Positions 2,740-52,300 are shown, numbered from the whole stretch's first letter. The stretch: DNA of 62,930 bases, filler included, from Folioceros fuciformis (GCA_049999805.1; 7 parts of 7 records of this genome joined end to end with filler, not necessarily neighbours in it); one strand, 5' to 3'. The notes: generated by a model from the letters alone, not told the origin. Numbers and translations: made by a program.

Positions 2740-2915
2740 GTTCACCGGAGCGTGATTGAAGCCCATGAATATTTGTTGTGTCCTGGGTCGTGGGACAGCA
2801 GGAGGCTCATCGTATCTCTGCAACTGGCGTACAGATTGTCGTTGTGTCAGTGTAATCATGCACGCCTGCTGAAAGTGCAGGGATGAGAATTAGTCTTCAA
2901 TATGAATGATGTCTT
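2740..2915 (+). pseudogene. Possible older PPR relic
   Basis: 'RSVIEAHEY' (resembles GSVxEAxxxF) and 'CNHARLLKVQG*' (resembles CSHAGLVxxG). Confidence 0.3.
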
Positions 2916-3009
2916 CACAACGAATAGCAAGGTATCTTAGAGGCTCGAAGTCCTAAGTGAGACAAGATGCCGCCGGGTGGGAGTGCCGGTCTTCACCGAA
3001 ATGTGGGTA

Positions 3010-6000
3010 TTACGAGCCTGATATGAGTGGGATGTGACTGAGGAAACCCATGACAGGGGCCTGAAGCTGATGCATGGCCAGATAGGCTCCGATCCCCGCG
3101 ACATACCCAGCTAGAGCGAAGCCACTCACCTGTAGACATGCATGTAGAACGTAAGGATATGTGTAAGGGGAAAAAATACAGCTTCGTGAGGAAAGATCCC
3201 TTCGCGGCACAAGGGCCTACCTTTCGGAGGTACCAAAAAAAATCAGCTTTCTCCATGCCCATGAATGCTACTCCGGCGGCAGATCCGATTATTAAAATCG
3301 ATCCCCCTGTGCCCGCACAAAAGGCAATGAGCTGCCAAAGTTCGGCATCCTGTGGGAAAGTGGTCATGTCATACATTCCCATGGTCGCAGCAACCAGCGG
3401 CACGTTGTCCACAACAGCTGATGCAAGGCCGATGGAGCTAGCAATCAGTTCCGTGCTGTGTATATGCTCATCCAGGAAGTTGGCCAACTGTGTCAGAAGT
3501 CCCGCAGACTGCAAGCTGTGAGGCAGCAACACCAAGTCAGAGATACTTGGCAATAAGCCCGATACCAAGTCCAACCACCAGAGCGTGGTCATGAGGGCCA
3601 CAACTGACCTGCCAACAGAAAGCAGTATACCCAGGAAGAACAGCACACCCTGTGTATCGATCCTGGACAGAGCTTGAGGAACCTTCAACTTCTGCCGGTC
3701 AGATTCGCCATAGTGGATTGCATCAGTCAAGAGCCAGAGTGCGCCCAGACCCAGGAGCATGCCGAGGTAGGGGGGCAGTCCTGTTAAGCCTTTGAATACA
3801 GGAACGAAGAGCAGCGCAGCTACGCCGACCGCAAACACCAGCTGCCCCCTTGGTGCCAGTGATTCTGTTGACAACACTGGGCGAGCATCCTGATTCCCTT
3901 CAACTTCACTATACACATCATAATATCACACTTTGTAAGCAAGATGACATGGCATCCGGGCCGCGACTACGGCAAACAAGAAAAACCCAGCAGCACGTTT
4001 CGCGTTTGACGTGATTGTGGCATTGGCAATCAATGCCAGCCAATGCTTGCATACCTTGTGAAAGACATCAACGCAAGTGGCACCACCAAGGCGAGTGCAG
4101 AAGGAATGAAAAGGTCCTGTAGGATACACCAAACAGCAAGGAATCGTTGAATGAGTTGCGGAACAAGGAAACTGATGGCCAAATTGTTGTACAAAGGCAG
4201 ACAACAATAATGCAACACCCAGTACCTGCATAGTTTGTACAGTTGAGATCTGCCCATGAATCCAAAGCATTGTCGTTGTCACATCCCCAATAGGTGTCCA
4301 AGCTCCGCCAGCATTTGCAGCAATGACAACAACGGCACCCAAAAATCTGCAGGCAAATCCGATGCCCATCATGTGAGGTTCCTCAGTTCCGCGATGGATT
4401 TCATTCCAGGATGACAAACTCGTGCTAAATGTCAAGACCGATTGGATGAGGGCCACATACTTTCTGCGCTCTGGATTGGGAACAAGCTTTCGAAGCAAAG
4501 AAACCATGACAATAGTTGATGTCAGATTGTCCAATACTGAACTAAGGAAGAATGTTATTCCACCCACCTGCAAAATGAGACGAGAGCAAGAGCATCAGAC
4601 ACAAGCAGGAATTTCAGGCAAGAAACGTCAATGGATGATGGAACTTGGAAGGGAACTTGTCACGGGCGTGTAAAGCATGTCCACGTGGGCAAAGCCATCC
4701 TCAAATGTAAAGGAAGAGGAGAGAAGCGCACCCTACCACCCAAAGCAGCATACGAGGTTTGCGCGTTGTGATGGCATCGGTCACCAACTTGAAACCTTGG
4801 TGTGCATCAACGATCTCCACAATTGTCATTGCACCTAACAGAAAGAACACAATCTCACTGACTTCCTCTGATGAATCTGACAACTGCTGTACTGCTTCTT
4901 CAGGTGATGAAGCCTGTAAGCCACTCCTATGGATCAGTTCCAAATGACAGCATCAGCATGCATAGTGCTCCATAGACATATTCATCCATGAATCTCGAAA
5001 ATAGTACAAAATAGATGACTGAAGTGACTTACTCCGAGGCTTCGGATAACCCAAAGCGTCACTGCCATGAGCAGTCCCACCCCACTTTTGTTGAATACCA
5101 ATGACTCCTCAAAAATGATCCCAGCATATCCAGCGCAGAATACTAAGGTCATTGCCAGGTTCTGTGGACAGTAAGCATGTGAGCAAGATAAGACAATCTC
5201 ATGAGGCAGGACATCGTTCAAGATCAGCTAGCTTTAGAAATTTCACCAGTCCAATACAACGCAAAGGCACATTATACCTGGTTCTCTGCAACCCACGAGT
5301 GATTTATGATAGCTGCTCCTCCAAGAATTCCCACACCAATAGCAATGGCTTTTAGGAAATCCGTCTTCGGTTTATAGCTGGCCTCAAATTGCAGTGAGCT
5401 CATCTCATCCACAGAACATAAGGGATCACAGGTTCCCTCGGCAGACTCCATCTCCTGCGAGTCATAATATGTACAACTTCGTGGTCAGTTCTTCGTTCGA
5501 CGGCAACACCACTGACCAATTTGTGTGGAGAGCGGGCAAGCCACGCACTTCTGCCTTCCTACCATCCACTGCAGCCTACACGCTGCACCACACCGCCCCC
5601 CCCCCCAAAAGCAAAGAAGAGGGGGAATAACGTCCATTCAGCTGGTAGCCAATTTGGTGTGCACAATTCAGCGACAGCACATTTTCAAATCATCCCATCC
5701 ACACAAAATGGCCACACATTGGCTGCTCACGTGGGGGGAAATTGAAAACATGGCAGCAGAAGACGTCACACACTGCCTCTCACCTGATTACGACCAATGT
5801 CCTTGCTGCCATCCTCCCGCTCCACCGAAGAAGCCCTGACAGAGACATCCAAAGGCTGTCTCTGAAAAGGAAGGCCGCCGAAGGAGCGATCCGAACCAAA
5901 ATTGCCTCCAAGAAGCCATGGGAATTGTCTGACATGATGCTGGCCTTGCACTCCAACCGGAGACGTAGCAGCCCGCTGACGAAAGGAGTGTCTCAAGACG

Positions 6001-6122
6001 GGGAAGTGCGCTGCTGCCCTCGCAGCTGGTTGAGCCAGTTCACTGGGAGACGAGAAAAGAGGAGAAAGATGCGGCGAGCCTGCGAAGGCCGCGGCTGCCG
6101 GGTTCAGGCGCTGCGAGGCCAT
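3010..6122 (-). CDS. NHD1: Plastid NhaD-type Na+/H+ antiporter (multi-exon)
   Basis: Exons encode 'GIIFEESLVFNKSGVGLLMAV', 'EIVFFLLGAMTIVEIVDAHQGF', 'LDNLTSTIVMVSLLRKL', 'AANAGGAWTPIGDVTTTMLW', 'DNVPLVAATMGMY', 'AGTGGSILIIGSAAGVAFMGME'. The N-terminus is Ser/Ala-rich and transit-peptide-like; the start codon is approximate. Confidence 0.92.
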
Positions 6123-6529
6123 GGAATTCGGCGCTGCTGCCAGCATCACGGACCAATGCGATAGCAAGGACGAGAACACTGGTCTCCAAGGAGACGCAAA
6201 GTCCCTCACCCTCCACTCCGAAGGCGTTTCCTGTGTGCACCACAGCAGTTTTCGTTTCTTGAGAATATCAGGAGGCGAAGTACGGCGAGGCTCGGCCCAG
6301 CGTTGATGACGAAGTACGTGCCGTGTCATGCCCGCCCCAACAAGGAGGCCATCGAAATTCAATCGTGAAATGTCCAAGATCTTTTGTATATTAGTTTGAG
6401 GCGTAATTTGGAGCTCAAAATATGACAAGCAAGCTGTGCAGTCGCCTGTCTCAGCTAAGCAACTTTGCTGAACTGCCGTCTTTCGGCGTTAAGAGTGGAA
6501 TCGAAACTAGAGACTTTGCATGTACCGAA

Positions 6530-7981: not shown

Positions 7982-8309
7982 AGCTTCAACTGGCCACGGC
8001 CTCGTTTCCACCCTCAAGAGTTTCACTTTCCTGTCTACCTCAGTACCTAGTTAAAACTGGTGGTCCTACTTTCACACTAACTTGCCTAATACTTATGCCC
8101 CTTTTCGATTGTAATACTGAATGTATTTGGGATTCCATGAAGCAGCCGGTCAACCGCGGTACACGGGACGGTAATACCAGAGGATATACGAACTAAATTC
8201 TGCCGGTTCTCCAACAGCCACGAAGAAGCAAATGCTATTCCCTAACAAGCAAGAGTGGATAAGCGACATAAGGTTAGGGAATGGATCTACCACAATCTTC
8301 CATAACCTA

Positions 8310-8560
8310 AATTTTAACGCAGGAATAGGATGACCCAATTTGCAACTCGACTTTGTGCACGAGCTGAGAACCGGTTTTGGCATTTGGCCTTCTGAAGACT
8401 TCTGCCGGGACGAGTCTCGTCGTGGACAAAGAATTGCAATCAATCTCACAGCGACACTTACATGAAGTGGACACACTCTTTTCAGAGCGCGCGTCACTTC
8501 AAGGATGGCCTGTACGGTTTGAGGAGCATTGCCTCTGGACGGATCAAACTACCCACAGCT
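8310..8560 (+). pseudogene. Possible older PPR relic
   Basis: 'AFGLLKTSAGTSLVVDKELQSISQRHLHEVDTLF' resembles L motif TFxxLLKAC...GKELH...G.E.D.F; followed by 'FEEHCLWT'. Confidence 0.38.
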
Positions 8561-8754
8561 TACGGACCATGTACATATTAAGTCCCAAGAGGCAGCAAGC
8601 TGCACAACTGTCAGGCCAGTATTCCTACTCTGCACTGTACGCTAAGCCTAATAGTGAAAAGTACAAGAGACTACAGATGTATGTGGTTACTCCCTCCGCA
8701 GTTACCTTGACCACACGACCTCCTTCCTCGACGATCTCTGTAACAGTAAAGAAG

Positions 8755-9045: not shown

Positions 9046-9054
9046 TTAGGGTGG

Positions 9055-11014: not shown

Positions 11015-11719
11015 TCCTCGTTCCTGTTGCTTCCTCACTCGCGCGCCGCTCTACTCGCGACAAGCCGCCCCGCTCGACCCTGCTCCCACCAGCTCGATAC
11101 TCCGCCACCCCGTTCGCTGCTCCAACCACCCGTAGTACCCGTCTGTCCTCCAATTCCACTGTAGTACCTACCACACCACTGAATACTGGTGCTTGCTTCC
11201 CAGCTCGGCTCTGCTCCAACCACCCGTGGTACCCGTCCCTGCCTTTCTCCTGGGAGCAATACCTACCACTATCACCCAATGCGCTTCTACTCCTTCGCGT
11301 CGTCCCTCCTCCTTTTCTTTGTGTGTCGAAACCCTAAATGAGAGCCTCGCTTCACGACAGGAGCCTTGGGCCTAGGAGGAAGAGCTTCACGACAGGAGCC
11401 TTGCGCCTAGGAGGAGCAGCAGGCGCAGGCGCGAGCCTCCATGCCGCTCCTCCAGCTCCAAGCGTGCGCATCGTTGTTCGCAACGGCTGATGGAAGATTG
11501 TGTGCGCCCGCGCCATAGACCCCGTGGTTCAGCACCGCGCAATGATATGCGGGGCGTGCGCCGAGATGATGCTCGGCGGACGCCCCGCACTCCCAGCCTT
11601 AGCCGGACACACCCGGTGTTTGCCCCAACACCGGTGTGTTTGCATGTCGGCGTCGCTGCTGCTCCACACAACCTGGTCACCTTCGCGTGCCATCGTTGTG
11701 GATCTGCTCCACGCCATGC

Positions 11720-11985
11720 TCCCCCATGCGCACATTCTGCAGCACCGACAGGAAGGAGGCCGGGACTGGAGACTTGCCAACTGCCTGGTGGACTGGTACG
11801 CCGAAGTGCGGCAGCTTGAGAGATGGACGCGCCGTGTGGGAGTCTAACTCCTTGCCCTTGACGGAAGGCACGGGGTGCCATGGACGGCCAGGAAGATGAG
11901 GCCCTGTGCCTCTGGGCACGCAGGGCATAGCGTGGGTGGTGAAATTGTGTCTCTTTTCGCGGCTTCTGGTCACTCCTTGCCCATT
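11720..11985 (+). pseudogene. Frameshifted PLS-PPR relic
   Basis: GCCAACTGCCTGGTGGACTGGTACGCCGAAGTGCGGCAGCTTGAGAGATG reads ANCLVD-YA-KCGSL-D across indels. It is flanked by 'HAHI', 'PWTA' and 'DEALCLW'. Confidence 0.65.
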
Positions 11986-23392: not shown

Positions 23393-24125
23393 CGTTTGGT
23401 ACTCCCTACAATTAGGGAAGGATGCCTTGTGGAGCAAGTTGCTAGATCTAGGGAAGGATAGCCTTTGGTATTCCCTACAATTGGGTGGGTGTAGGGAACG
23501 ATACCGTTTGGTACTCCCTACAATTAGGGAAGGATGCCTTGTGGAGCAAGTTGCTAGATCTAGGGAAGGATAGCCTTTGGTATTCCCTACAATTGGGTGG
23601 GTGTAGGGAAGGATACCTTTGGTATTCCCTACAATTAGGGGAGGATGCCTTGTGGAGCAAGCAACTAGATCTAGGGAAGGATACCCTTTGGCATTCCCTT
23701 GATTAGGAAAGGATGCCTTTTGGCGCAAGTAGGTGGGTGTAGGGAAGGATAGCCTTTGGTATTCCCTACAATTGGGTGGGTGTAGGNNNNNNNNNNTAGC
23801 CTTTGGTATTCCCTACAATTGGGTGGGTGTAGGGAACGATACCCTTTGGTACTCCCTACAACTAGGGAAGGATGCCTTGTGGAGCAAGTAGCTAGATTTA
23901 GGGAAGGATAGCCTTTGGTATTCCCTACAATTAGGTGGGTGTAGAGAAGGATACCTTTAGTACTCCCTACAATTAGGGAAGGATGCCTTGTGAAGCAAGT
24001 AGCTAGATCTAGGGAAGGATACCCTTTGGCATTCAAGGATACCTTTTGAAGCAAGTAGGTGGGTGTAGGGAAGGATACCCTTTGGTATTCCCTACAATTA
24101 GGGAAGGATGTCCTTTGGAGCAAGT
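23393..24125. repeat. Complex tandem array (~112-bp higher-order unit) of palindromic subunits TAGGGAAGGATACCTTTGGTATTCCCTAC
   Basis: CGTTTGGTACTCCCTACAATTAGGG recurs at 23393 and 23505. Each subunit carries GTAGGGA...TCCCTAC and ATACC...GGTAT inverted arms. Confidence 0.9.
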
Positions 24126-25262
24126 TGTTGGATATCTTATAAAACAAGTTGTTAAGTACCAACATAGAAATATGTTCGTAGTAGAATCTAATAAAATTTT
24201 GAGAAAATTTATCCTTAGGGAATTGTAATAAGGTTCATAGAAAATTTATTCTTATTGGACTCTAATAAAATTCTTCATCTTTGTATATGCAATAACCTGC
24301 TTTCAAGAATCTTATCATAAGCAAAATGTTATTTTTTTCCGTACAATTATAGGAAGCAAAGTTGATATTACTAAGTCTCCATTTCATTTAAGGAGGGTAT
24401 GGAGTCAGTAAAAATATTTATTATAAAATTATCTGAACTAAAAAAAATTCTAATTTTTTCTATTGATATATTATTTTTATATTATAAATGATATAATTAA
24501 TTTTATTCATGATGAATCAATCAATCAATTTGATCTATGGTGGCCACGAGCTTGTGCTCCAATATTGATTCTTAGATTATTAATGTAAATATATTTATTG
24601 TAAAATTACTTGTGCTAAAAAACTTCTCTATAATAAAAAAACAAACCAACGCCTTAACTAACCTTGCAGGCAAAACTCCAAACCGGGGCCTGGATGGATA
24701 CAGGTTGCACTGAAGGATCTGTTAGCGAGCGGGTCCGTTTTGAATTGCAGAATGTGTATGGAGCCAAGAGCCGCAAGACATCGTGTACAGCTTTGTACTG
24801 AGGTCTGCCACACAGAGCCTGCCATCTTGCTTTTGCGGAAATTTTTATTCGGACTTGATCTCGACATCTTGGAGCTGGGAGGTCCTGCGTATTGGTTGCA
24901 TCTGATTAGCAGCTTCACCGCTTCTTGCAGCAATTTGTCCAACTGTACCATTTTTTGTGCTCAGCCGGAGACGAGTCTGTCTGTTGGAAGGGCAGAATGA
25001 GGCCTCACATACTGTGCTTTGCATGCGGTAGTGCCGACAATTGCACGGTCCTCCTTTCACACAGCAGCACAAGCAGTCATGGTTGCGCTGTGCTTCTTCG
25101 TATTTTCTGTATCATGGAATCATGGATATGCAATGCGAAGGTCATAGACTGCTACAGCATGCAACAGGGTGGTGGTCGGAGTCGTGAAATTTGCTACCTA
25201 GTGGTCATGGATGGGCTGGTGGATCTTGCACAGCCGTTGTGACAGTGCCTGCTGCTCCTGCA

Positions 25263-30956: not shown

Positions 30957-31874
30957 CCGTGCCGTGTGGACGGACACGGGTCGGATGCATGTGTACAAGG
31001 ATGACTAGATCCGCATGACTACTCGCCAGACTTCGGCAAAGCCCTTGTTTCTTAACAACTTTGCCCCCAAACCTTGAAGAAAAGGGCCACAGAAAATGGC
31101 TTTGAGCCTCCAAGTGAAGGGGAAAAATGGCACCCGAGAGTCCCAGTTTTAGTTTTTGAGAAAAATGGCTTTTAGATTTTTTTCGGCTTTCTACTCCATG
31201 TGTTAGAGAATATATCGCTTCTGTATATTATCACATAAGTTATATCACATAAGTTCATGTGTATATCATATAAGCTTTTATTTCTAAGTAATAGGGAACA
31301 ACTCTCATAAGATTCAAAGTATTTAGAGTACATATTCATACACGAAAACTTCTCTTGAACCAAAAGGACCTTGGATATAAAAAAAATACTATCTGAAAAC
31401 AATAATTGTACTTGATGGCATAGCAGGACAAAGGTTGTAAGCTTGTAAGTTAATATTCGATGACTTGATGACTTAGCAAGACAAAGGTTGTAAGCTATTT
31501 TCATGTTCCTCTTACTTTAAAATATTCTGAGCTCATGTTTTAGGAATAATTAGTTTACTTTTTTTTTTGAGATATTTTCTTCTTTTTTAAGGTAAAATAT
31601 ATGGAATACTGATACGGTCATGAGTTCTTATACAAATTTTTTTGCTCCTCCGCATATAGTCCCAACTTTTCTGGTTAACAAACCTGTCCGTCATAAGGCA
31701 TCTCGATGGGGACAACGAGTGATACACACAAAACATTATCTGCCACACACATTTAGGGTTTTCAATTTAGGGTTTGGCAGGTTGCTTCAGGGTTGGGGCC
31801 TTATAGGGTTTCACGGCGGCCATGCTTTCATGGCTGCTCGCGCTTGCCACACTTCATGGGTTCTACAGTTTAGT

Positions 31875-32020
31875 GCCTCAACCTCGCGTAGGCTAAATGC
31901 CTCAGCCCCGCGTAGGCTAAATGCCTCAGCCCTGCATAGGCTAAATGCCTCAGCCCCGCGTAGGCTAAATGCCTCAGCCCCGCGTAGGCTAAATGCCTCA
32001 GCCCCGCACGTAGGCTAAAT
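31875..32020. repeat. 24-bp minisatellite (GCCTCAGCCCCGCGTAGGCTAAAT) x6
   Basis: Directly visible tandem copies. Confidence 0.95.
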
Positions 32021-32216
32021 GTTGAGCTAGTGACGCCACAAGGGGTTCAGGGTACTGCAAGGTTCCAAATTGGCAATTGCTCGTCCTATGTGCTATGCCA
32101 AAGGGGGCTGAAATCACCTTTGGTTATTGCACAGCCCATGAGGGCAAGCTAAAGGGTCATAGGGTTTCTTCCCAAAGCACAATGCAGGTTGAGACCACAA
32201 ACAACCGCCCCCACAG

Positions 32217-32364
32217 GGGTGCAGGAAACGGGTGAGGAGGCAATCCTGATCCATGGCTGCCTTGAGGGTGCAGGAAACGGGTGTGGAGGCAATCCTGATC
32301 CATGGCTGCCTTGAGGGTGCAGGAAACGGGTGTGGAGGCAATCCTGATCCATGGCTGCCTTGAG
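32217..32364. repeat. 49-bp tandem repeat x3 (GGGTGCAGGAAACGGGTGTGGAGGCAATCCTGATCCATGGCTGCCTTGA)
   Basis: GCAGGAAACG occurs at 32221, 32270 and 32319. Confidence 0.95.
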
Positions 32365-35310: not shown

Positions 35311-38028
35311 TTATGATGTTCTCTGCTTTGGGCGGTAACAGCCATCGTCCACTTCTGTAAACACGGGCGGCTTGTATTTCAGCCTTGATCTATTATTAAG
35401 GGGGGTCGGATAATCCTGATCTCCGACCACAAAGCTGTGCACCAGACCATGGATGTCGGTCCACCAGCTCTCACCTGGCTGCTTCCTCGCCCTCATTCTA
35501 TTTCGCCGGGCCTGGATCTCCTGGGCCTGCTCACCCATCTGGGCACCCATGTAGATGTTGGACATCAACACATAGGCAGCGGCATCTTTCTCATCCAGCT
35601 TCACAGCTTCAAAGAAGGCAGGACGTGCCACTTCCACGTTGCACCACTTTTGGCAAGCAGCCAGCAGGGTGTGCCAGACGGCAGCGTTAGCTTGTACTGG
35701 CATTGACCTGACCATAACCAGCGCCTCATCTAGGTGGCCAGCACGGCCCAGAAGATCCACCATGCAGGTGTAATGCTCAACCGCCGGGGTGATTGTGTAG
35801 TGTGAGCTCATGGCTTGGAAGTACTCTCTGCCCTTGTCCACCAGACCTGCATGACTGCACACTGTTAGTACGCTGAGTAGAGTGATTCCGACTGGCCGTA
35901 TGCCATCCCCTGACATTCTCTGCACCAAGTGGAAGACTGCTGCACTGTCTGCCTGGCAAGCGTAGCCTGCAATCAACGTGTTCCAGGCACCGTCGTCTCT
36001 TTCGGGCAAGCCATCGAACACCTGCTGTGCATCAAGCATGCTCCCAGACTTTGCGTACATGCTTATCAAGCTGCTAGCTACGATGACGTCGGCTTGGAGA
36101 CCTTGTTCTACAACATGGGCATGAAGCTGCCTTCCTATCTGCAGAGCTGCCACATTTGCACATGCCTGCAGGAGGCACACAAACGTGACGGAGTCAGGTA
36201 CTGCGATGCCCTCTTGTTGCATAGCATTGTAGAGAAGGAGGGCTTCCTGCCCCATGCCCTGCTGGGAGTACCCAGCTATCATGGCAGTCCATGTCACGAC
36301 GTTCTTTGCATGAAATCTCTGAAATACTGTCTGAGCATCTTCCAAGCTCCCACACTTTGCATACATGTGTACCAGACTGTTGGCTACGAACACGTCAGAT
36401 GCATGTCCTTGGTCTCTTGATTGTGCATGAAGCTGCTTCCCCTTGTCCAAGGCTCGGCTGCCTACACTTGCACATGCCTGAAAAAGACATCCAAATGTTA
36501 TGGAATTGGGCACAACAATGCCTCCTTCTTGCATTGCATTGTACAGGTCGAGGGCTTCCTGGCCCATTCCCTGCTGGGAGTATCCTGCGATTAAAGCAGT
36601 CCATGTCACGACGTCTTTGTGCCCAAGTCCATCAAACACTCTCCGCGCATCCTCTAGGCTGCCACACTTGGCATACATGTTAATCAAACTGCTGGCTACA
36701 AACACATCAGGTGGGTGTCCTTGTTCTGTGATTTGGGCATGAAGCTGCTTCCCTGTCTCCAAAGATGCGGTTCCCACGCTTGCGCAAGCCTGCAGGAGGC
36801 ACACAAATGTGACAGAATTGGGTACCGACATGCCTTCTTCTTGCATTGCCCTGTAGAGATGAAGAGCTTCCTGCCCATCGCCCTGTTGAGAATACCCGGC
36901 AATTAGAGCAGTCCATGTCACCACGTCTTTTTGCCCAAGTCCATCAAACACTCTTTGTGCATCCTCTAGGCTACCACACTTTGCATACATGTTAACCAGA
37001 TTGTTGGCTACTAATAAATCAGCTTCATATCCTCGTTCTGTCATTTGTACATGAAGCTCCCTCCCCTTCCCCAGAGCTGGGGACCCCATGCTTGCACATG
37101 CCTGCAGGAGGCACACAAATGTCACAATATCGGGCATAGCCATGCCATCTTCTTGCATAGCGTTGTGCAGACGGAGCGCTTCTTGCCCCATATCCTGCTG
37201 GGAATACCCTGCTATCAAGGCATTCCATGTCACCACATCTTTTTGAACAAGTCCATCGAACACAACCTGAGCATCCTTTACGCTGCCACACTTTGCGTAC
37301 ATGTCTACAAGGCAATTGCAGACAAACAAATCAGGCTGAACCCCACTGGCCAACACATCTGCATGCACCTGTTTCCCAGCTTTCAAGTCTGATCCCCTTG
37401 CACAAGCCTGAAGGGCAGCCACAAACACATGGCCATCTGGCTTCACATTTGACCTGCGCATCCGACCATACAGTTGTTTTGCCTGTATGTCTTGACCGTG
37501 TTTAACAAGTGCAGAAATCATTGACGACCACATGAAAGCATCTGGGTTGGCCATCTCGGTGAACACATCCATCGCGTCTTCCAACCTTCCATGAGAAGCA
37601 TACATTCGCAAAATGTGATTGCAAAGGAACGTGTCTTCCTGATACCCTTCCTTCAACGTGAGAGCATGGACGCGCCGACCCAAAATGAGATCCTTCCTCT
37701 TTACACATTTGTTCAAGACCGTGTACAACAGAGAAATAGAGATGCAACATGCTGTCTGCACAAGAATTCCCAGAGCCTCAACAGCCTCAGCAAGATGGCC
37801 CTCATGACATAGGTTAATCACGGTTTCAGCCGTTACGCCCCACTTGACTCCTACAGGTAGGTGGACGTTAGGATCATGATGCCTGCCGCAGGTGGATCCT
37901 GTTGAACGAGGTGGCTTTTCCTTGAAAATGCTGCAACTCGAGAGTCGAAGGTTTGCAAACGGTTGCTTCCCTGAAGTCGGCTGCGCACGAGCTGTCCCTA
38001 AAATCCATGCAAACCTCCTACGACCCAT
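35311..38028 (-). CDS. Intronless PLS-class PPR protein (~6 triplets) with E1/E2 and WW-type PG box, ending before the DYW active site; paralog of 25263-30956
   Basis: Same repeat consensus and N-cap ('GVTAETVINLCHEGHLAEAVEALG') as the giant PPR. 'KQPGESWWTDIHGLVHSFVVGD' is followed shortly by a stop. Start placed at ATG 38028 because the upstream ORF part overlaps the monooxygenase last exon; the start is uncertain. Confidence 0.92.
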   Translation of the reverse strand: MGRRRFAWILGTARAQPTSGKQPFANLRLSSCSIFKEKPPRSTGSTCGRHHDPNVHLPVGVKWGVTAETVINLCHEGHLAEAVEALGILVQTACCISISLLYTVLNKCVKRKDLILGRRVHALTLKEGYQEDTFLCNHILRMYASHGRLEDAMDVFTEMANPDAFMWSSMISALVKHGQDIQAKQLYGRMRRSNVKPDGHVFVAALQACARGSDLKAGKQVHADVLASGVQPDLFVCNCLVDMYAKCGSVKDAQVVFDGLVQKDVVTWNALIAGYSQQDMGQEALRLHNAMQEDGMAMPDIVTFVCLLQACASMGSPALGKGRELHVQMTERGYEADLLVANNLVNMYAKCGSLEDAQRVFDGLGQKDVVTWTALIAGYSQQGDGQEALHLYRAMQEEGMSVPNSVTFVCLLQACASVGTASLETGKQLHAQITEQGHPPDVFVASSLINMYAKCGSLEDARRVFDGLGHKDVVTWTALIAGYSQQGMGQEALDLYNAMQEGGIVVPNSITFGCLFQACASVGSRALDKGKQLHAQSRDQGHASDVFVANSLVHMYAKCGSLEDAQTVFQRFHAKNVVTWTAMIAGYSQQGMGQEALLLYNAMQQEGIAVPDSVTFVCLLQACANVAALQIGRQLHAHVVEQGLQADVIVASSLISMYAKSGSMLDAQQVFDGLPERDDGAWNTLIAGYACQADSAAVFHLVQRMSGDGIRPVGITLLSVLTVCSHAGLVDKGREYFQAMSSHYTITPAVEHYTCMVDLLGRAGHLDEALVMVRSMPVQANAAVWHTLLAACQKWCNVEVARPAFFEAVKLDEKDAAAYVLMSNIYMGAQMGEQAQEIQARRNRMRARKQPGESWWTDIHGLVHSFVVGDQDYPTPLNNRSRLKYKPPVFTEVDDGCYRPKQRTS

Positions 38029-38192
38029 TGATGGCACGACTACCCTCGTATTGCAAGTCCTTACAATGTTGGGGAGAGGAGAAATTTTGGTGATGGGATG
38101 GTTGGAACGTGGTGGCACACATTTCAAAATGCAGGCAGTATGTTTGCTTTCAGTGTACAAATCTGGAGCTCTGAGAATTCCTCGTTTACACG

Positions 38193-40268
38193 TCAGCCTC
38201 TTGCGCTTCTGGAGCTGGTTAACTCCACTAGTGACAACCAGGGTCTGTGCCTCTGAACAATCTACATAAGGAGCAGAAATAACTTCAAAAGGCGGCCTGA
38301 CTGACATGAAGGCCTCTTCACACCTTAGTCCAGGAGAACATTTGCCTTAAGAACCACAGCGAGCATCATTTGCTACGTACCTCTGAGTAAGGAGTCAAGG
38401 TCTCTGAGCACAAGCTCTGAATGGTGGGTGGAAGTAGATCTGGAAATGCTTTACCAACAAGCGAGTACAGCACATTCCCTGCCAGGAAGATTGGAAGAAG
38501 CCACTTGGCGGAAGGGAAGGCATTCTCAGACAAGTACGCAGCCGCACCGTCTTCTTTAACCTGCTGTAAGGAGTAGCGCTCCAAGGCAACATTCATGTAT
38601 TCTTCCGTGCGTAACAGATCAGCAAGGACAACTGCGTCCTGAACACAACAGCAGCAGACGTCAGGAACGGATACCTGTAAGATGCAGCAGAGAGCTTTCT
38701 TTCAAGGGGCCAACAAACCTGCAGTGAAGAATTGCAACCTTGACCAAGAGCATTAGACATGGCATGTGCTGCATCCCCTATTAGCACTGCTTTACCCTTG
38801 GGATCGTAGAATTTGCCACAATTTACCTGCAGGAACATTGCCGCATGCATAGTCATTCACAGGGAAGGTGGCAGGAAAGATGTCGAACACTGTCCTGGTA
38901 GGTGTCGAATACCCTCATAGTAGAAGTTGGGCGTTGCTCGATGAAAGCCTCAGCGGATTCCAGAGGGCACGTCAGTGGTGCCATACTTTTCTCAATGAAT
39001 CTTTTCAGCTGTCATCCAAAAAGAGTAAGAACTGTACTCCACCCCTGGACCATGTAGTCCAAGCAAAATCGCTGCAAACATAGCTACCTCTAGGCTTGAC
39101 GTAATTTGCAGCAGGCTAGCTGGTACAGTTTCTGGAGACCATTCAATTAAAACAGATAGTCGACCATTTGGACTTGGGAAGCAAGCGTATCTCAAAGATT
39201 CAGACTTCCTTCCAAGAAACGGATTTGGAAACTGCAGCCAAAATGGTCTCGTGGATGGAGAATCCTCGGACTCCTGCAAGGGCACACGAAAGGAGTGTAC
39301 TGCTGTATCTGAAAGTTCAGCTGGCCTTGGGACATTCAGGACTTTAAACATGTATGGAGGGTTGATCTGCTGATAGTCAAACCCTCTTTGTCGAATAAAC
39401 TCTTCTCTGACAACTGATCTGGCACCATCAGCGCCGACCAGAAGATCGTACAGGACAGGCTTTTTCTGCCCCTCAACCTGCACAGTACGAGTGCTGAAAT
39501 CGGCTCCCAAACACCTTGTTTCGTAGTGCACCTGCAGTTTTGGTCAGAGTCGTAACTCATGAGACACAAGGCTTGCCCCATCCATATAATCGGCATGACT
39601 GCCATGCCGACGTGATGATAAACCACTCCTACCTGAACCTTCTCCTCGCTGTAACGCTGCTGCAGCTGAGCTAAGAGTGCAGCAGACAGAGCTCTCTGAT
39701 TGATGAGAAGCGATGGCTTATCTGGGTTGCGTTTCAGAGGAATGCTGCGTTTTCCTGCATGGAGCACAAACTCTGAGCTCGGCATCCCGGCTGCCTGTAT
39801 CAAGGGCCATAGTCCATCTACGTGCTCTATTGCATTTCGTCCACGGGCACTCAACCCAACAACATATTGCCTTATCTTGTGCCTGACACAACCACCTTCC
39901 CAATCCTGTCATTGTTTAGAAGACAACGAGCAAGGCACAGAACCCATCATCTCACGTTGCCCATCAGTTGCGAGGCTGATCAGACAATCGGACTGTTGTC
40001 TGTCTCTCGAGTTTGTCAGTAAAAGCCGGCCTCAGGAACACAAACAAAAGGATGTCTAGCATGTAAAACAGGGCGTCAATCTTGAAATGAGTCTATTTCA
40101 CAGCAGATGACCAATTCTGTGCCAGGTGACATACGGTGGTAATGGAGTACACGGATTCTGTCTAGCTTCATAGATTCGGATTGGCAGGATTGGAGTTGGT
40201 TGAGCCAGGAGAAGATGTGCCAACAGAAGCCCTGCTGGGCCTGCGCCCACAATCACAACTCCAGCCAT
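38193..40268 (-). CDS. FAD-dependent monooxygenase (kynurenine 3-monooxygenase-like), multi-exon
   Basis: GxGxxG 'VVIVGAGPAGLLLA', 'YDLLVGADGARSVVR', 'LIGDAAHAMSNALGQGCNS'. The inferred last exon 38193-38261 (E|IVQRHRPWL...G*) follows a polypyrimidine-AG acceptor. Confidence 0.85.
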
Positions 40269-40569: not shown

Positions 40570-41200
40570 CAGGACAGGATCCTCTGGTCCATCTGCAAGG
40601 AAGTGCCGTTGTAAGGCTGAGCATTCGGCACTTTGCCGTTCAGGGTTTTTTTGTCGCGGAATTATATTCTTGGAGGATACGAGCACCAAGGGCCGCATCG
40701 CCGGCTCTCGGAGCAACGACGAAAGAAGATCATGTTCCTCAGCATTCTGAAAGCGTGCTGAGACATGCCTCAGGGAAGGTGATTCATGCTCAGTCGTTGA
40801 TGCGTTTACAGTTTTTCTGCCGTATGGCTAGTGTGCTGCCTAGAGAAGGAGTGGAAGCCCTTGGTAGTGTGCGAATGAAAACGGTGGTGCATCGGAATGC
40901 TATGATCACTGGATACTCTGGACCAGCACGCACAAACCGAGGGCTTACTACCAAATTGGGTAACACCACTCTGGAAGGCACAGAGGTCTCGTAACCTGCA
41001 ACATTGCAGATCACATTGTCCGCACGGGTATCCTACTGCTGTTTCACACAAAGCAGGTGTCACCGGTTAGACCGAGACCAGTCCAACCCACAATCTCTTT
41101 CCTGTCTATTGCAGTCTTTTGGTGTTTTGGGTTGCAGGCCAGAGTGCATGACTGCTCCAATCAACGTCCTACATCCTCAATGTATGGCCGAGTCCAAGAT
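40570..41200 (+). pseudogene. Frameshifted PLS-PPR relic
   Basis: 'IMFLSILKAC*', 'GKVIHAQ', 'KTVVHRNAMITGYS', 'PQSLSCLLQS', 'SMYGRVQD'. Confidence 0.65.
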
Positions 41201-41926: not shown

Positions 41927-42019
41927 GAACGCTGCCTTGTCGCTTCTCGTTTGTCGATTGCAAGGCTCAGCACAGAGTTGGCTCACATATAGGAGTCCAC
42001 TGTGACTGAGCTCAACAGG

Positions 42020-42370: not shown

Positions 42371-43474
42371 GGCAATAAAAATAGTTAGAACAACGACGAG
42401 GCGCGGGAAGCCAAGTGTTTCGAGAAGTTGAAGAAGGCAGAGCTGAACGCAGAAACCAGAGCAGGAGGAGGAAGAGGAAGGCTCGTTGCTGCTCCCCAGA
42501 CTATTGCCGGCCACCGTCGACCACCCTTCCTAATGGCAGACACTGGGCTGCGATAAGCGCATTTTGGCGCATCAGGAGTCCAGGCTGGCCGAGAGCTTCA
42601 ACGAGATCTAGACAGCCTGTGAAAAGTGTGGAGGAGGGTCGCAAAGCAATGCTCGAGGGTTCGAGCAGGGAACACAGTACTGCCTGTACTTGGACGTACG
42701 CTTCTTGATTCTCGGTAAATTAGACGTGGAGGGAAACAGGATGAGTTTTCCAATTCATTCTAGAGTGAAATTCTCATCACACTACGAAGAGAACACTTAG
42801 GTTCAGAACTCTTGGTATGTTATTGAACCCTGATCCTCTCGTCCAGTTTGAACCTATATCGAGCGAAGAATTATCGACATGTGTCTCCGCTTCTGAGTTC
42901 CCCAATGTGGGATAATTTGCCACTCAAGATTGTATCGAAAGGATCCTTCAACGCCGCACAACAAGCTCTTGTGGTGGATCCGCCAGACTAGTTAGCATCT
43001 TTCCACTGGTGTATGCAGCTCCTTCCGATTCGCTACACGCGCGTTCGGATCCTGATTTTGTAGATTGGCTGGCAAATTACAGCACACGGGCCACAGAACC
43101 CCTCGCAAATCAAATTCCGGTCCTGTTTGATATATTTCTAGAGGCTTAAACAGAGTTCTAGATGCAATATGCGACAGAACACCCTTGGTTTGCACCCAAT
43201 CACAGCGCCCTGCCCCGACCTCGCACGCGCACAAGCGCACTGCACATTTGATAGACCTTCGTCAAAAACCATTCATATATCTTTGGACGAGGTAGGTGCT
43301 CGTGGTGGTGACGTTTTTAGTCTGGTTTCCTTTGTCTTCACCTCGGGAGGCTTCGGAGCAGGAGACTCCTCAGCTGTGGAACTGGGTTTCGGGGCAAAAC
43401 ACAGTGCCCGAGCACCTGGCTCAGAACCCTGTAAATCAGGCTAGGCTAGGGTAGGCTTTGCCCGTTGCGGCAGT

Positions 43475-43820
43475 TTGGCATGTGCAGGAACGTGAGCTTG
43501 AGCTTGAGCATGGGAGGAAGCATGGGTTGGTCGTCACAGGTTGTCCGAGCGTTGAAGCAGCAAGGACATGAGAATAAGCATGTGTTGTCGTGACATGTTT
43601 TCCGGGCTTTGAAGCAGGAGGTGACGGGCAACTTGCAGGCTCATGCTCCAGACGAAACTAGGGCAAGTCCTGGCCAGCCTTGGGTTCGGGGCTGGGATGA
43701 TATTCGCAAGCAAGGAGGGCCACCGGCAGGGAACCAGTAGGCAGTCTAACGTGCGAGGTTGAATGGGCCTACTTCACCTCTACGATGCCAGGGCATGATT
43801 GTGTCTGCTCAGCCTGGATC
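43475..43820 (+). pseudogene. Frameshifted relic of the same PPR subfamily as the two intact genes
   Basis: GCATGTGCA (ACA), CAGCAAGGACATGAG (QQGHE), GTCGTGACATG (VVT-W), GATATTCGCAAGCAAGG (~GYSQQG), CTCTACGATGCC (LYDA), TGTGTCTGCTCAGCCTG (~VCLLQAC). Confidence 0.6.
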
Positions 43821-43959
43821 TCTGCCAAGAGGCTTAGCACCCCACCTCCAGTGAGACTTTCCATGACTATGATAGTTAAACAAGTGTCAACAATAATGGA
43901 AGGGATGAATTTTCTTGACACCTGGTTGTTGAATTCCTTTTTAAGCATTTGTGCATCCC

Positions 43960-44248
43960 TTTAAGCTTTCCATCCCCTTTGAGCTGTGTATGCATCTTCA
44001 CGCTTTTAGCTACCCAAAGCTTCCCCTTTGAGCTGTGGATGCATCTTCACGCTGTTAGCTACCCAAAGCTTCCACTTTGAGCTGTGTATGCATCTTCACG
44101 CTGTTATCTACCGTGTATCCACTTTTACACTTTTAGCTGCTGGCGTATCCATCTTCACACTTTTAGCTCCTGTGTATCCATCTTCACACTTTTAGGTGCC
44201 GTGTATCCATCTTCAGCCTGTTAGCTGCTGTGTATCCATCTTCAGCCT
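43960..44248. repeat. Degenerate ~29-bp tandem repeat (TGTGTATCCATCTTCACACTTTTAGC) at contig end
   Basis: Repeated GCATCTTCAC / TATCCATCTTCA units. Confidence 0.85.
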
Positions 44249-45344: not shown

Positions 45345-45735
45345 GGAGATGGAACCGCTGCCCTGTGCTTGCCGAGTGCGCAGATTTTTGTTTGGGAGGG
45401 TGGCCGGAAGGAGCGAAGAACAGCTGGAATAGTGTGATGTATGCAACGCAATTCCATGGAAGGCAGCAAGTACATGTAGGCATGGGGAGGATGAGGTGTG
45501 CCGGAGTACTGTACTCCCGCTCAAGGCTGCAGTGCATGAGGCGTCCATGCTGGACAGGAAATTGCTCAATAACTTCACCTGACAATTGGAGCGGTTTGAT
45601 GTTGATTTGGTGGGGATCCGTTGTGTGGCAATGAGGTCGTGATGTGTGTAGACGGTGCTTGAAGTGGCTGGTGTCGGCGCAGTACAGAAGCTGTTTCCGC
45701 GGATTTGGAGATCTTCTTTGGAAGAATGTCAGGTC
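45345..45735 (+). pseudogene. PPR C-terminal relic (S-P2-L2-S2-E1-like)
   Basis: 'NSWNSVMYATQFHG...MRCAGV', 'LKA', 'VDLVG', 'IWRSSLEEC' (resembles VWxSLLGAC). Confidence 0.5.
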
Positions 45736-49107: not shown

Positions 49108-49757
49108 CCCCCCATGAGCATATGATGCTACTTCTTTCNNNNNNNNNNNNNNNNNNNNNNNNNNNNNNNNNNNNNNNNNNNNTTAATTAATTAANNNNNN
49201 NNNNNNNNNNNNNNNNNNNNNNNNNNNNNNNNNNNNNNAAGCCAACCTCTTCCCGAGGTACCAGTTAACTTCCTCCTTTGTGTTCACTCCCTCGATTTGC
49301 AGCAGGGAGGTGCTAGGGTACTGATTGGACTTGGACCTTCAAGATGCCGTTCACTATTACATTAAGCCCTACAAGTGCGCAGCCCTCCCAACTCCCCTCC
49401 CAGGAGGTGCAAACCGTAGGTCAAGCAAAAGACGCTGGCAACGATGAGCTTACCTCTTGTAGCCCAAAACAATCCCTCGGACGTACAACCTGCGCGTTAC
49501 AGCACGCCAACACAGGGAACCTGAAAGTCAGCAAAACATACACCAGCCACAGTCCGGAAGAATTCGGGCTCGATACACAAGTCAGTCCAGGACTCCTACA
49601 ACAGAGGAGATCAGCGAGACGGAAAAGCCGACGTACCTCACGTTCTCGCCTTTGGTTCCTGGCATCCTGAGCGACGATGAACGATCTGGGCGCTGGCGGC
49701 CGGAGCAGTGAGAACACGAAAGAGAGCTTCAGGTTTCAATCCGAGCACTATATGTAA

Positions 49758-49765
49758 AAACCCTA
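49758..49765 (+). promoter_or_regulatory. Telo-box (AAACCCTA) upstream of RRF
   Basis: Exact motif ~190 bp before the ATG of a translation-factor gene; telo-boxes are common in such plant promoters. Confidence 0.4.
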
Positions 49766-49955
49766 GGAGGCCATATGTGTACGTCTGTCTGAAAAATATG
49801 TACATACGTATTCGTATGTAAATATGGAATATTGGTAGCAGGCAAATAACGCAAAATCAAGATAACGGGGAACGGAGTTTTCTATTCACCGTTTGATCCT
49901 CAACTCTGATCACATTCAAAACGGGGTGATTTGCGCAGACGGCGTCATCCGCAGA

Positions 49956-51591
49956 ATGGCTATGGCGATGGCAGGCGTTGCTGCCACCTGCTCTACTTCC
50001 CACACACTTGCTGCCTCGCCGACTCCACGGTACTACTGCCACCAGCAGCTGCATTCAGGCACCAACTCTATCCGTCCTACTTCGTGGTGCTGGATTGGAA
50101 ATTCAAGGGCTGGCGGATTGGCATGAAGTGCTGTCTCTGCACTCTGATAGTGTGGTGCTTTGGTTTGCAGACACTGGATTCAGCAGGTGCTACTTGGTTT
50201 CCGGATCGAAGCGGGGGCTATGGAGCTTGCCGCATCAGCTGAGCACGCCCACCAGGCAGCGGGCGTTGCAGGCTTCCAAAGTTGCTACCCGGCCTCATGT
50301 TGGGAGGTGGGTTCTGCGGGAGTGTAGCAACTTGGCTGTAATTTGGGTTTTGGTTGGGTGACGCGTTGAGGGTTACTGTGGTGGCAGGTTCATGCCTGCG
50401 CGAGCTGCCACTGCCGAAGACGTAGAAGCTGAGAAGGAGCTTATTGAGGAGGATGCTGTGAGTATGTGGGGAAGGTTCGGATTTTGCTGCCAAATTCTGT
50501 GCTGGAAAGTTTTGGCTCTCAGTGGCTAAACTTGGGTTGATCTGAGCAGATGGAGAGGATGGAGAAGAGCTTGGAGGCTGTGAAGGCGAATTTCAACACA
50601 GTGAGGACGGGAAGGGCTAGCCCGTCTTTACTTGACAGAGTGGAGGTTTGGGGATCGGACCCTGGTTTTGGGTTGTAGCTTGGAGCTTGTGGAATGGGCT
50701 TAATTCTCTGGATTTTGTGGGATCTGTCAGGTAGAATACTATGGTAGCTCGGTTATTCTGAAAAGCATTGCTCAGGTGACCACACCGGATGGCAGCACCA
50801 TTCTCGTCCAGCCATTTGACAAGTCCAGGTGACTGGATGTCTTCTTGTCACATCCTCGTATGTCCTTGTTCTCCTTCTGAATCAGTAACGCTGAAAGTAT
50901 GCAAGTTGATGCCGTCCTGCAGTCTGTCAGCCATTGAAAAGGCTATCACGAAGTCTGACTTGGGGCTGACACCGAGCAACGATGGAAGTGTAATACGGCT
51001 TATCATACCGCAGCTGACAGCTGAAAGGAGGAAGGTTTGTGACAAATTGTGGCCAATACAGCATTCCGATTGGCCATCTAGCGTAACAGAGAGGACGGGC
51101 TGCTTGTTGCAGGAACTTCTGAAACTGGTGTCAAAATTGGCAGAGGAGGGCAAGGTAGCAGTCAGGAATGTTCGACGGGATGCAATCAAAGCATATGAGA
51201 AACTGGAGAAGGTTTTGCTTCACTCTTGTAATCGGTGACATTTGGAGGGTTTATTCCAAAAGGAAAGAAGCGTCACTCTGTAGTGGTGCTTGCTTTCAGG
51301 AGAAGAAGCTATCCACCGACAACGTGAAGGACCTTTCAGGGGAGATCCAGGTTGGTTGTGAAGGCTCAAGTTGGACTTTCTGGCTAACATAGGTTGATTG
51401 ATCGACAAGCCATTGAACCTGGTGGCGAGGTGCTTCGCAGAAACTCACGGACGATTATGTGAAGAAAATCGATGGCCTGTTTAAGCAGAAAGAGAAGGTA
51501 TGTATAATGCATAAGGTGGTGAGGATCTTCATGACGGTGGTTGAAAGCACGATCTGACATTCATGAGATGCAGGAGCTTACCACGGTCTGA
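49956..51591 (+). CDS. RRF: Chloroplast ribosome recycling factor (multi-exon)
   Basis: '[35 protein letters not shown]', '[27 protein letters not shown]', '[16 protein letters not shown]', 'QKEK|ELTTV*'; transit-peptide-like first exon. Confidence 0.93.
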
Positions 51592-51939
51592 GCTGGCCCA
51601 GGATCTGCGCCATCAGGGGGCACATGCTTTGCAAACGGGCTCTAAAAGCAATGTAAAAGCTTTTGTCCGCCTCAAGGGAACTCTTGGGAACAAAACGACC
51701 TACTCATGGACTAACAACTTTCAATGCGAGTAAGCTGGAGTTTGACAACCATCCTTCTCCATCGATTTTTCCTTGGCGATCTAAAATTTACAAAATCGCC
51801 CATCACGGTAAATGCTGTAGCTACCTGGAGGGGCTGCCTTTGGAGGTTGTAGCTTATTTCAAACTTTCATCTTGCTTCTGTTTGTAGAGCCTTTCCTGCG
51901 TCCCCTAGATTCGAGCTTAGCTTGCTCGATTGTATTATG

Positions 51940-52300
51940 AAGGAGTCCATCTTGGTGGTGGTTGTGGTTGCCTACCAAAAATGAGTGCACCGTCAGTCTC
52001 CTCATGCTGAATCCAGCTCTGGTGAGGCCTCTTCGACTCACCTACTGTGTGTCTCGTGTCATCTGCGTCACGTGTGAGATGGACATGTAGTGCTTGAAGA
52101 GAGGCGACGACACGAAGTGTATCCAGATCACCCGTTTTGTCAATGGAGACTATGCTGCAGCCCACCTCACGCGCATGGCAACCAGTGCACTGCCGACGAA
52201 GACATCCTGCTCAATCCCCTAGCAAGCAGCTTCAGCATGTTGATNNNNNNNNNNCCGCATCCGTGCAGAGCACTACCAAGGCCATTAGGCAAAGCCGTCA
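51940..52300 (-). pseudogene. PPR relic with S motif and canonical (SWI-type) PG-box/E+ remnant
   Basis: 'GIEQDVFVGSALVAM' (52174-52218), 'KRPHQSWIQ' (~52007-52035) and 'VHSFLVGNHNHHQ' (51951-51990) in different frames. Confidence 0.7.

Follow-up and report, generated by a model that had tools for sequence, protein, structure and literature searches.

Probable relics of PLS-class PPR genes beside two live PPR genes in nuclear DNA of Folioceros fuciformis

The window analysed here, a stretch of 62,930 nucleotides with filler included, is land-plant nuclear DNA in which two intact PLS-class PPR genes lie among about 12 unrelated genes. PLS-class PPR proteins are a family of organellar RNA-editing factors, built on a degenerate helical motif (PPR) of 31–36 residues. 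The two live genes and one non-PPR neighbour that bears on the analysis are as follows.

25188–30953, plus strand: live PLS-class PPR gene A, a stop-to-stop ORF of 1922 aa in which residue 26 is the first Met
35314–38346, minus strand: live PLS-class PPR gene B, an ORF of 1011 aa
49956–51591, plus strand: coding sequence of a chloroplast-type ribosome recycling factor (RRF), 10 exons, 279 aa
51592–52417, plus strand: part of the 3′UTR in the last RRF exon, in one RNA contig; the RRF stop codon ends at 51591

Both PPR ORFs matched the Pfam families PPR_2 and E_motif (PF20431), with E-values of 9.7e-228 and 1.6e-15 for gene A and 9.9e-96 and 9e-09 for gene B, which bears out the two live PLS-PPR genes proposed in an earlier, sequence-only reading of this DNA. 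Gene A has about 15 P1-L1-S1 triplets and gene B about 6, and both end in P2-L2-S2-E1-E2; P1 motifs are spaced about 104 aa apart, and 21 triplet units were aligned. The two genes are paralogues in inverted orientation, with 58–62% amino acid identity (blastp). A C-terminal E1/E2 extension is present in both, as judged from the Pfam E_motif match and from alignment to an E1E2 profile. DYW_deaminase (PF14432) was not found by Pfam in either gene, and a complete DYW domain is therefore absent. The alignment of gene B stops at column 11 of the DYW profile, and gene A offers only a possible degenerate DYW tail (30816–31002) that, at 28.0 bits, is at noise level. Judged by motif content, gene A is without a functional DYW domain, and genes A and B both classify as live E2-type members of the PLS class.

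The sequence-only reading had also listed nine decayed PPR genes, six of them clear (11.7, 33.1, 40.6, 43.5, 45.3 and 51.9 kb) and three possible (2.7, 8.3 and 42.0 kb). We searched for relics with purpose-built motif profiles and a purpose-built dynamic-programming aligner that used a single set of gap and frameshift penalties. Generic profiles (P1, L1, S1, E1E2, DYW) were made from 150 unrelated PLS proteins in the database, and a codon-DNA profile was made from the triplets of live genes A and B. Window-wide maxima of the frameshift-aware scan were 22.4–33.9 bits, plus one outlier at 42.6 bits, in 46 dinucleotide shuffles, and 25.1–38.4 bits with 44 scrambled decoy models. Four of the nine sites (8.3, 11.7, 40.7–41.0 and 51.9–52.65 kb) stood above the shuffle and decoy controls and five did not. 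The supported segments, each 66–283 nt long, are the following.

8320–8458, plus strand: probable DYW deaminase domain relic (profile columns about 31–80), with an in-frame stop and/or frameshifts
11676–11958, plus strand: probable L1-S1-P1 relic of a PLS-PPR gene, frameshift-aware alignment of 44.5 bits with several frameshifts
40735–40965, plus strand: probable L1-S1-P1 relic of a PLS-PPR gene, frameshift-aware 37.3 bits, with 1 stop and about 4 frameshifts
51868–52096, minus strand: probable relic running from an E2 motif into the first 28 or so DYW columns, frameshift-aware 40.0 bits, with 1 frameshift
52174–52239, minus strand: probable relic of the end of L1 and the start of S1, S1 profile 10.8 bits (ORF mode)
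52415–52650, plus strand: probable P1-to-L1 relic, the best preserved, frameshift-aware 44.4 bits

The score at 11.7 kb exceeded the maxima of all 46 shuffles and all 44 decoys, and the codon-DNA profile (nhmmer) independently matched 11774–11825 with 15.0 bits (E 1.7e-4), where the best of 20 shuffles gave 4.5. An L1-like word also occurs upstream of this relic, at 11456–11497. At 40.7 kb, one shuffle in 46 and two decoys in 44 equalled or beat the frameshift-aware score; the codon-DNA match there (40894–40921) reached 9.5 bits (E 0.0078) and the motif cluster sum was 15.9. At 8.3 kb the DYW profile, reading through the stop, gave 16.5 bits over 8320–8457 (+), compared with a shuffle maximum of 9.4 (n = 46). 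The frameshift-aware score of 32.2 bits at this site is borderline (2 of 46 shuffles and 13 of 44 decoys did as well), and the catalytic motifs of the DYW domain are not preserved. Because one shuffle reached 42.6 bits, neither the 40.7 kb nor the 8.3 kb relic is secure individually, and by its sequence the DYW relic is probable, less secure than the other supported sites.

Three segments make up the site at 51.9–52.65 kb. The segment at 52415–52650 holds a full-length P1 with 1 in-frame stop, followed by an L1 with an insertion and 2 frameshifts; read through the stop, its P1 scores 23.8 bits, versus a shuffle maximum of 7.9 (n = 46). The codon-DNA match here (52416–52526) is 8.0 bits, and the generic P1 profile gives 12.7 bits versus 8.0 for the profile specific to A and B. 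On the minus strand, 1 of 46 shuffles and none of 44 decoys attained the E2/DYW score, and the E1E2 profile gave 8.7 bits. The small L1/S1 segment is at noise level by itself in the frameshift-aware scan (26.5 bits), and it lies upstream of the E2/DYW segment on the same strand, the intervening motifs having been deleted; together the two give a cluster sum of 16.1.

The RRF gene model rests on a Pfam RRF match (E 4e-22), spliced GT..AG joints seen in run X3 RNA contigs and the spliced translation. One contig of that run (record 16) covers 51572–52244 and 52255–52417, so that the 3′UTR part is at least 884 nt long, including 68 nt hidden beneath a run of 10 N at 52245–52254. Both minus-strand relics lie antisense inside this contig-covered last exon and 3′UTR, and the plus-strand relic starts where the contig ends. 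The contig is unstranded and is no proof of a single transcript through the RRF 3′UTR. At least for this pair, the suggestion that PPR debris occurs in UTRs holds, with RNA contigs covering 51.9–52.2 kb.

The remaining listed sites fell within the noise. Among those called clear, 33.1 kb scored 20.9 bits frameshift-aware; 43.5 kb (43457–43494, +) is a single 10-residue S-motif word of 23.0 bits frameshift-aware, whose S1 profile score of 10.8 bits (ORF mode) about equals the shuffle maximum of 10.9; and 45.3 kb (45422–45563, +) is a weak P1/L1-like stretch of 25.7 bits, a score bracketed by the shuffle and decoy maxima, where a profile match of at least 5 bits was not found. Frameshift-aware scores at the possible sites at 2.7 and 42.0 kb were also noise. 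Thus 11.7, 40.6 (signal at 40735–40965) and 51.9 kb survive from the six clear remnants, and 8.3 kb, as a probable one, from the three possible. The reading had itself named, as the outcome that should count against it, most listed spacers scoring no better than shuffled sequence, and by a narrow majority (five of nine) this is what was found.

Across the window, the frameshift-aware scan gave 10 peaks of at least 36 bits, several of them belonging to one alignment, against 0.05 per decoy model; they resolve into 4 distinct loci with collinear motif order. The codon-DNA profile produced 3 matches above all 20 shuffles (maximum 4.5 bits), at 11774–11825, 40894–40921 and 52416–52526. In ORF mode there were 17 matches of at least 7 bits, compared with 3.64 expected and at most 8 in any of 39 shuffles; at a cutoff of 8 bits the counts were 11 observed and 1.51 expected. 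Ten of the 17 fall at the four supported sites and 1 at 43.5 kb; the 6 elsewhere are close to the chance expectation, and we therefore see no further detectable debris in the window.

Canonical motif order is kept in the relics: those at 11.7 and 40.8 kb read L1-S1-P1, the one at 52.4 kb reads P1-L1, and the one at 51.9 kb runs from E2 into DYW. All of them have 1–6 frameshifts and/or a stop, internal deletions also occur, and they lie in non-coding DNA between unrelated genes. Their matches to the P1, L1, S1, E2 and DYW profiles follow the order seen in live E2-type PLS PPRs (A, B and the 150 database representatives), which the same profiles recognise; the relics differ in spanning at most 2–3 motifs, in being broken by stops and frameshifts, and in having no blastn similarity to A or B. 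At E ≤ 1e-3, blastn found no match between relics and genes A and B or between one relic and another, which indicates that the relics are old and not local copies; by sequence comparison they are not recent copies of the live neighbours.

We take these features to mean that PPR pseudogene debris, heavily decayed, is present in the window, and that the supported segments are probably what is left of PLS-class PPR genes that became pseudogenes long ago, two or more of them of DYW or E2 type. Whole intronless PPR genes would formerly have stood at or near the relic positions, although we infer such complete-gene sites from segments whose ends are undefined. Selection would have been lost, for example when an organellar editing target disappeared or a copy became redundant; disabling mutations would then have built up, and deletions would have shrunk the genes within a compact genome until the most conserved motif cores alone could be recognised. 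The residual DNA, presumably without PPR function, would have been passively taken into spacers and a neighbour's UTR.

It is conceivable, though improbable, that whole genes never stood in these places and that short pieces arrived by transposon capture, as filler DNA in double-strand-break repair, or through small inversions or duplications. The pieces are indeed very small, and at 52 kb two of them are in head-to-head orientation, about 180 nt apart on opposite strands, an arrangement that two complete genes in place do not explain. Yet within the window the relics are not connected by inverted or direct repeats or by further copies, and each holds its order over 2–3 motifs while carrying many private lesions, as slow decay in place predicts. 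Self-blastn of the window returned local tandem repeats only, all of them away from the relics, and no repeated flanks, terminal repeats or further relic copies. In the several hundred bases 3′ of the relics there is no run of 8 or more A or of 8 or more T and no 20-nt window with at least 15 A or T. The relics thus show neither the 3′ poly-A of processed (retroposed) pseudogenes nor, within the window, the marks of a transposon-borne gene fragment. The idea that these genes disperse and die at a rate like that of a transposon family finds nothing in its favour here, with neither poly-A nor repeated flanks or copies, and one window gives no rate.

Chance resemblance, in which random and non-homologous matches to a degenerate motif were chosen post hoc from six frames of 54 kb, is somewhat less probable still. 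Pfam detected no relic: its PPR, E-motif and DYW families matched 0 of 294 small ORFs (147 + 147) at the nine sites at E ≤ 1, those at 8.3 kb included, and 0 of 129 other ORFs of at least 108 aa at E ≤ 0.01. That search is unable to read through stops and is therefore biased against broken motifs; the evidence for the relics comes entirely from the purpose-built profiles and aligner. Single motif matches are short (8–20 residues) and individually close to the top of the shuffle distributions, shuffles also yield single matches of 7–11 bits, and the 42.6-bit shuffle and the five noise-level sites chosen by eye point the same way. Against chance, three independent statistics (the DNA profile, the read-through protein profiles, and the frameshift-aware scores set against shuffles and decoys) all rise above their null distributions at the four supported sites, the surplus of matches is concentrated there, and the motif order is collinear. 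We consider it very improbable that the antisense PPR-derived sequence in the RRF 3′UTR, or any other relic, is retained as regulatory RNA that pairs with PPR transcripts or supplies small RNAs: seed-plant PPR gene clusters do yield siRNA, according to the available text of PMC13612597, and RNA contigs cover 51572–52417 with its minus-strand relics, but these unstranded contigs indicate presence only, and the relics' undetectable nucleotide similarity to the live window PPR genes makes RNA pairing with A or B implausible.

Decay of old PLS-class genes, the reading we prefer, fits a published model. The available passages of Geddy & Brown (2007; PMC1892557) describe birth-and-death, "nomadic" evolution of PPR genes and "false PPR genes" in Arabidopsis and Brassica, with gene positions that are not conserved, duplication to unrelated sites, and death by frameshifts and premature stops; they mention a cluster of "18 PPR genes and pseudogenes". 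Birth-and-death diversification, put forward in the sequence-only reading, was already in print for PPR genes. That system, as those passages present it, is mostly of P-class, restorer-like genes in flowering plants, whereas the relics here are very small pieces of PLS, E and DYW type, surrounded by housekeeping genes in a plant genome that is compact and has short introns. The same passages report no remnants where one of two related regions is missing a PPR gene. For editing factors, the portions available of PMC6424221 and PMC5992886 describe loss of PLS-PPR genes (CLB19, CRR28, RARE1, DOT4) after loss of the organellar editing target; target loss is the accepted reason for relaxed selection and decay. 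Those accounts follow named orthologues across species; for the relics in the window, we infer the step from target loss to decay.

The debris is sparse. The supported relics sum to 1201 nt, or 1.9% of the window; of the DNA that is neither PPR nor N they make up 2.3%. At about 2% of non-PPR DNA the window is not a PPR "graveyard", nor is much of its spacer, UTR and promoter DNA recycled PPR sequence, and over half of the by-eye sites were chance matches. What does stand from the first reading is that decayed PLS-PPR fragments occur on both strands, scattered among unrelated housekeeping genes: between ClpP and COBRA genes (8.3 kb), in a GC-rich spacer with COBRA (−) on one side and a SIS-domain gene (+) on the other (11.7 kb), between a FAD-binding-domain gene and a DUF1138 gene (40.7 kb), and at RRF. 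Tiny, badly decayed scraps of this kind, four or five here, are what a gene family with fast turnover ordinarily leaves behind; they are a modest addition to the accepted birth-and-death picture, with no new mechanism.

Some 45 kb of gene-dense DNA thus contains at least 4 dead PPR loci and 2 live ones. Were this density typical of the genome, which we think improbable, dead editing-factor genes would outnumber live ones several-fold, debris would routinely enter housekeeping UTRs and promoters, as in the RRF 3′UTR, and turnover would be much faster than published angiosperm comparisons suggest, tracking rapid gain and loss of organellar editing sites. If the relics are what they appear to be, they are concrete PLS, E and DYW-type PPR genes at the last recognisable stage of decay, remnants of the kind sought and not found in the flowering-plant comparison as given in the available text of PMC1892557, with one pair in the RNA-contig-covered 3′UTR of a neighbouring gene.

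The window is land-plant nuclear DNA, densely packed with genes. When 131 stop-to-stop ORFs of ≥108 aa were scanned against Pfam, plant-type families were matched for GT61, a citrate-transporter-like protein, ClpP, COBRA, a SIS-domain protein, condensin-II, a Sec16-like protein and Yippee, along with a FAD-binding protein, DUF1138 and ribosome recycling factor (RRF). Ten GT..AG joints, nine of which belong to the RRF gene, occur in contigs from sequencing run X3 and identify it as RNA; the introns that these contigs reveal are 76–127 nt long with GT..AG ends. The claim that two live PPR genes are present was borne out. Outside these two, no large ORF (0/129 of ≥108 aa, E≤0.01) matched a PPR-related family. 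These two genes, and a third gene defined by RNA contigs, are listed here.

25188–30953, plus strand: live PLS-class PPR gene A, an ORF of 1922 aa that matches every Pfam PPR family as well as the E motif
35314–38346, minus strand: live PPR gene B, an ORF of 1011 aa that likewise matches every Pfam PPR family as well as the E motif
53254–53619, 53747–53933 and 54043–54309, plus strand: exons of a spliced, expressed gene whose ORFs have no Pfam match

Genes A and B are inverted paralogues (58–62% amino acid identity) composed of arrays of ~104-residue P1-L1-S1 triplets, with ~15 triplets in A and 6 in B. Within and between the two genes, 17 core triplets share 58–82% protein identity and 68–81% DNA identity, and this similarity, combined with very unequal array lengths, shows that the arrays grew as entire 104-residue triplets were tandemly duplicated within them. 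Alignment places the C-terminal end of both proteins after E2, and neither has a Pfam match to the DYW deaminase. The last ~45 codons of A and ~50 bases past its stop (30816–31002, plus strand) align weakly to DYW profile columns 51–104, with one frameshift and loss of the catalytic motifs; alone, this stretch reaches a noise-level 28.0 bits. It may represent in-place decay of a DYW domain while the gene itself is still live.

The sequence-only reading had placed nine decayed PPR remnants around A and B, six of them clear (11.7, 33.1, 40.6, 43.5, 45.3 and 51.9 kb) and three possible (2.7, 8.3 and 42.0 kb). No uninterrupted ORF at these sites matched a PPR-related Pfam family (0/147 and 0/147, E≤1). 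As the Pfam ORF scan does not read through stops, dedicated profiles were constructed and their scores compared with those of controls. A codon-level DNA profile derived from 21 A/B triplets and run with nhmmer gave 3 matches above all 20 dinucleotide shuffles (shuffle maximum 4.5 bits). Narrow protein profiles from A and B only, which gave a weak and unconvincing excess, were superseded by generic P1, L1, S1, P2L2S2, E1E2 and DYW profiles built from 150 database representatives. These yielded 17 matches at ≥7 bits, where 39 shuffles gave an expectation of 3.64 and at most 8, and 11 at ≥8 bits, where the shuffles gave an expectation of 1.51. Ten of the 17 fall at 8.3, 11.5–11.9, 40.7 and 52.0–52.5 kb, one lies at 43.5 kb, and the remaining six are scattered, consistent with chance expectation. 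The excess of motif matches is fully accounted for by four places. With stops translated as X and overlapping 90-residue chunks searched by hmmsearch, the real sequence had same-strand clusters summing to ≥14 at five separate positions, compared with 0.15 per replicate in 46 shuffles. For frameshift-aware scanning, DNA was compared with the concatenated profiles using our own local aligner and a single set of penalties (frameshift 4, gap open 5, gap extend 0.5 bits). Across 46 shuffles the window-wide maxima spanned 22.4–33.9 bits, except for a single value of 42.6; across 44 reversed or column-permuted decoy models aligned to the real sequence they spanned 25.1–38.4 bits.

Relics, or short decayed pieces of PPR genes, are supported at four of the nine sites (8.3, 11.7, 40.7–41.0 and 51.9–52.65 kb), and are listed here with scores from the frameshift-aware scan.

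8345–8458, plus strand: DYW relic, 32.2 bits
11676–11958, plus strand: L1-S1-P1 relic, 44.5 bits
40735–40965, plus strand: L1-S1-P1 relic, 37.3 bits
51868–52096, minus strand: E2-into-DYW relic, 40.0 bits
52174–52239, minus strand: L1/S1 piece, ~80 nt upstream of the E2/DYW-start piece
52415–52650, plus strand: P1-L1 relic, 44.4 bits

The analysis shows the homology, motif order and lesions of the relics. Between one and three motifs survive in each, always in the canonical order, and stops, frameshifts and internal deletions interrupt them. The nhmmer matches lie within three of them, at 11774–11825 (15.0 bits, E 1.7e-4), 40894–40921 (9.5 bits) and 52416–52526 (8.0 bits). With stop read-through, the P1 motif at 52415–52513 reached 23.8 bits versus a shuffle maximum of 7.9 in 46, and the DYW profile reached 16.5 bits at 8320–8457 versus a maximum of 9.4 in 46. 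Three of the six sites called clear hold, as does 8.3 kb from the possible set, which is the least secure of the four. The other five are noise by frameshift-aware alignment: 33.1 kb (20.9 bits), 43.5 kb (23.0 bits) and 45.3 kb (25.7 bits) among the clear sites, and 42.0 kb (17.6 bits) and 2.7 kb, where nothing was found, among the possible ones. The generalisation to a PPR graveyard is not supported, since the excess is confined to four places and detectable debris makes up about 2% of non-PPR DNA (1201 nt in total, or 1.9% of the whole window; the share is 2.3% once PPR and N positions are set aside).

Three other candidates were set aside. A plus-strand chain at 52.65–53.95 kb resembled a complete E/DYW tail, but arose because the strong 52.4 kb alignment was carried over under cheap gap extension; realigned alone, its stretches scored 19.7 and 20.9 bits, which is noise. 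A minus-strand peak of 33.1 bits at 3407–3537 falls within a transporter-like gene's long ORF, away from the 2.7 kb site, and was treated as chance. An open frame of 349 aa (52078–53124, plus strand) has no Pfam match and spans the P1-L1 relic in another frame. No RNA contig from run X3 covers 52469–53148, and the frame probably stayed open by chance in spacer of high GC content.

The relics at 52 kb adjoin the chloroplast-type RRF gene, whose spliced coding sequence (49956–51591) specifies 279 aa. One RNA contig links RRF exons and runs on through 51572–52244, 68 hidden bases and 52255–52417, implying a 3′ UTR of at least 884 nt, although the contig is unstranded and may include an overlapping second transcript. 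The implied UTR contains the minus-strand relics and stops where the plus-strand P1 relic begins. In contigs of all three runs, the 10-N run at 52245–52254 is replaced by 68 bases. Position 52197, inside the minus-strand S1 relic, is T in all three runs (two DNA, one RNA) versus C in the window; because the DNA runs also read T, this is a strain or assembly difference and not RNA editing. The remaining relics occupy three spacers, flanked respectively by ClpP and COBRA, by COBRA and the SIS-domain gene, and by the FAD-binding gene and DUF1138.

Self-blastn of the window detected no nucleotide similarity among relics or between relics and A or B. The 52.4 kb relic fits the generic P1 profile better than the A/B-specific one (12.7 versus 8.0 bits), and DYW sequence is present in the 8.3 and 51.9 kb relics and absent in A and B. 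Taken together, these observations indicate that the relics are old, with origins in PPR lineages other than those of their live neighbours. The supported segments are most likely pseudogene relics of PLS-class editing-factor genes, dead and eroded by deletion. Whole PPR genes would once have occupied these positions, and their death may be a consequence of editing factors co-evolving with their targets, as is accepted (PMC6424221 and PMC5992886).

That the relics are inserted fragments and not genes that died in place seems rather unlikely. On the minus strand at 52 kb, motifs expected between the L1/S1 and E2/DYW-start pieces are gone, and the plus-strand P1-L1 piece starts ~180 nt away, head to head with them. 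No pair of complete genes in place could give rise to this arrangement, which needs either deletion and rearrangement or fragment insertion. No poly-A or A-rich tract was found beside the 3′ sides of the relics, and nothing in the window points to transposon-like dispersal. Chance matching, which does account for the scattered matches and yielded one shuffle maximum of 42.6 bits, is an improbable source of the supported relics. A retained regulatory role is very improbable, even with minus-strand relics lying in an implied UTR.

The sequence-only observation is confirmed in part, and its interpretation is likewise supported in part. The relics are most likely PPR pseudogene fragments, which are of a known kind, and constitute no new system. 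A birth-and-death, "nomadic" model of PPR genes was already proposed by Geddy & Brown 2007 (PMC1892557), who mention PPR pseudogenes and report no remnants at vacated positions in Arabidopsis versus Brassica comparisons. The relics described here would be such remnants, from PPR genes of the PLS, E and DYW class, in a plant whose genome is compact. Full-text searches, mostly of papers outside subscription journals, returned no account of intergenic PLS-PPR debris for hornworts, lycophytes or ferns.

Self-blastn also revealed local tandem repeat arrays, with copies 77–100% identical, at 23393–24127, 31874–32021, 32217–32364, 43973–44244 and 57248–57650; no PPR relic overlaps any of the five. 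Apart from 52245–52254, N runs follow fixed patterns (44 N, 12 bases and 44 N, or 100 N), and they look like masking, not assembly gaps.
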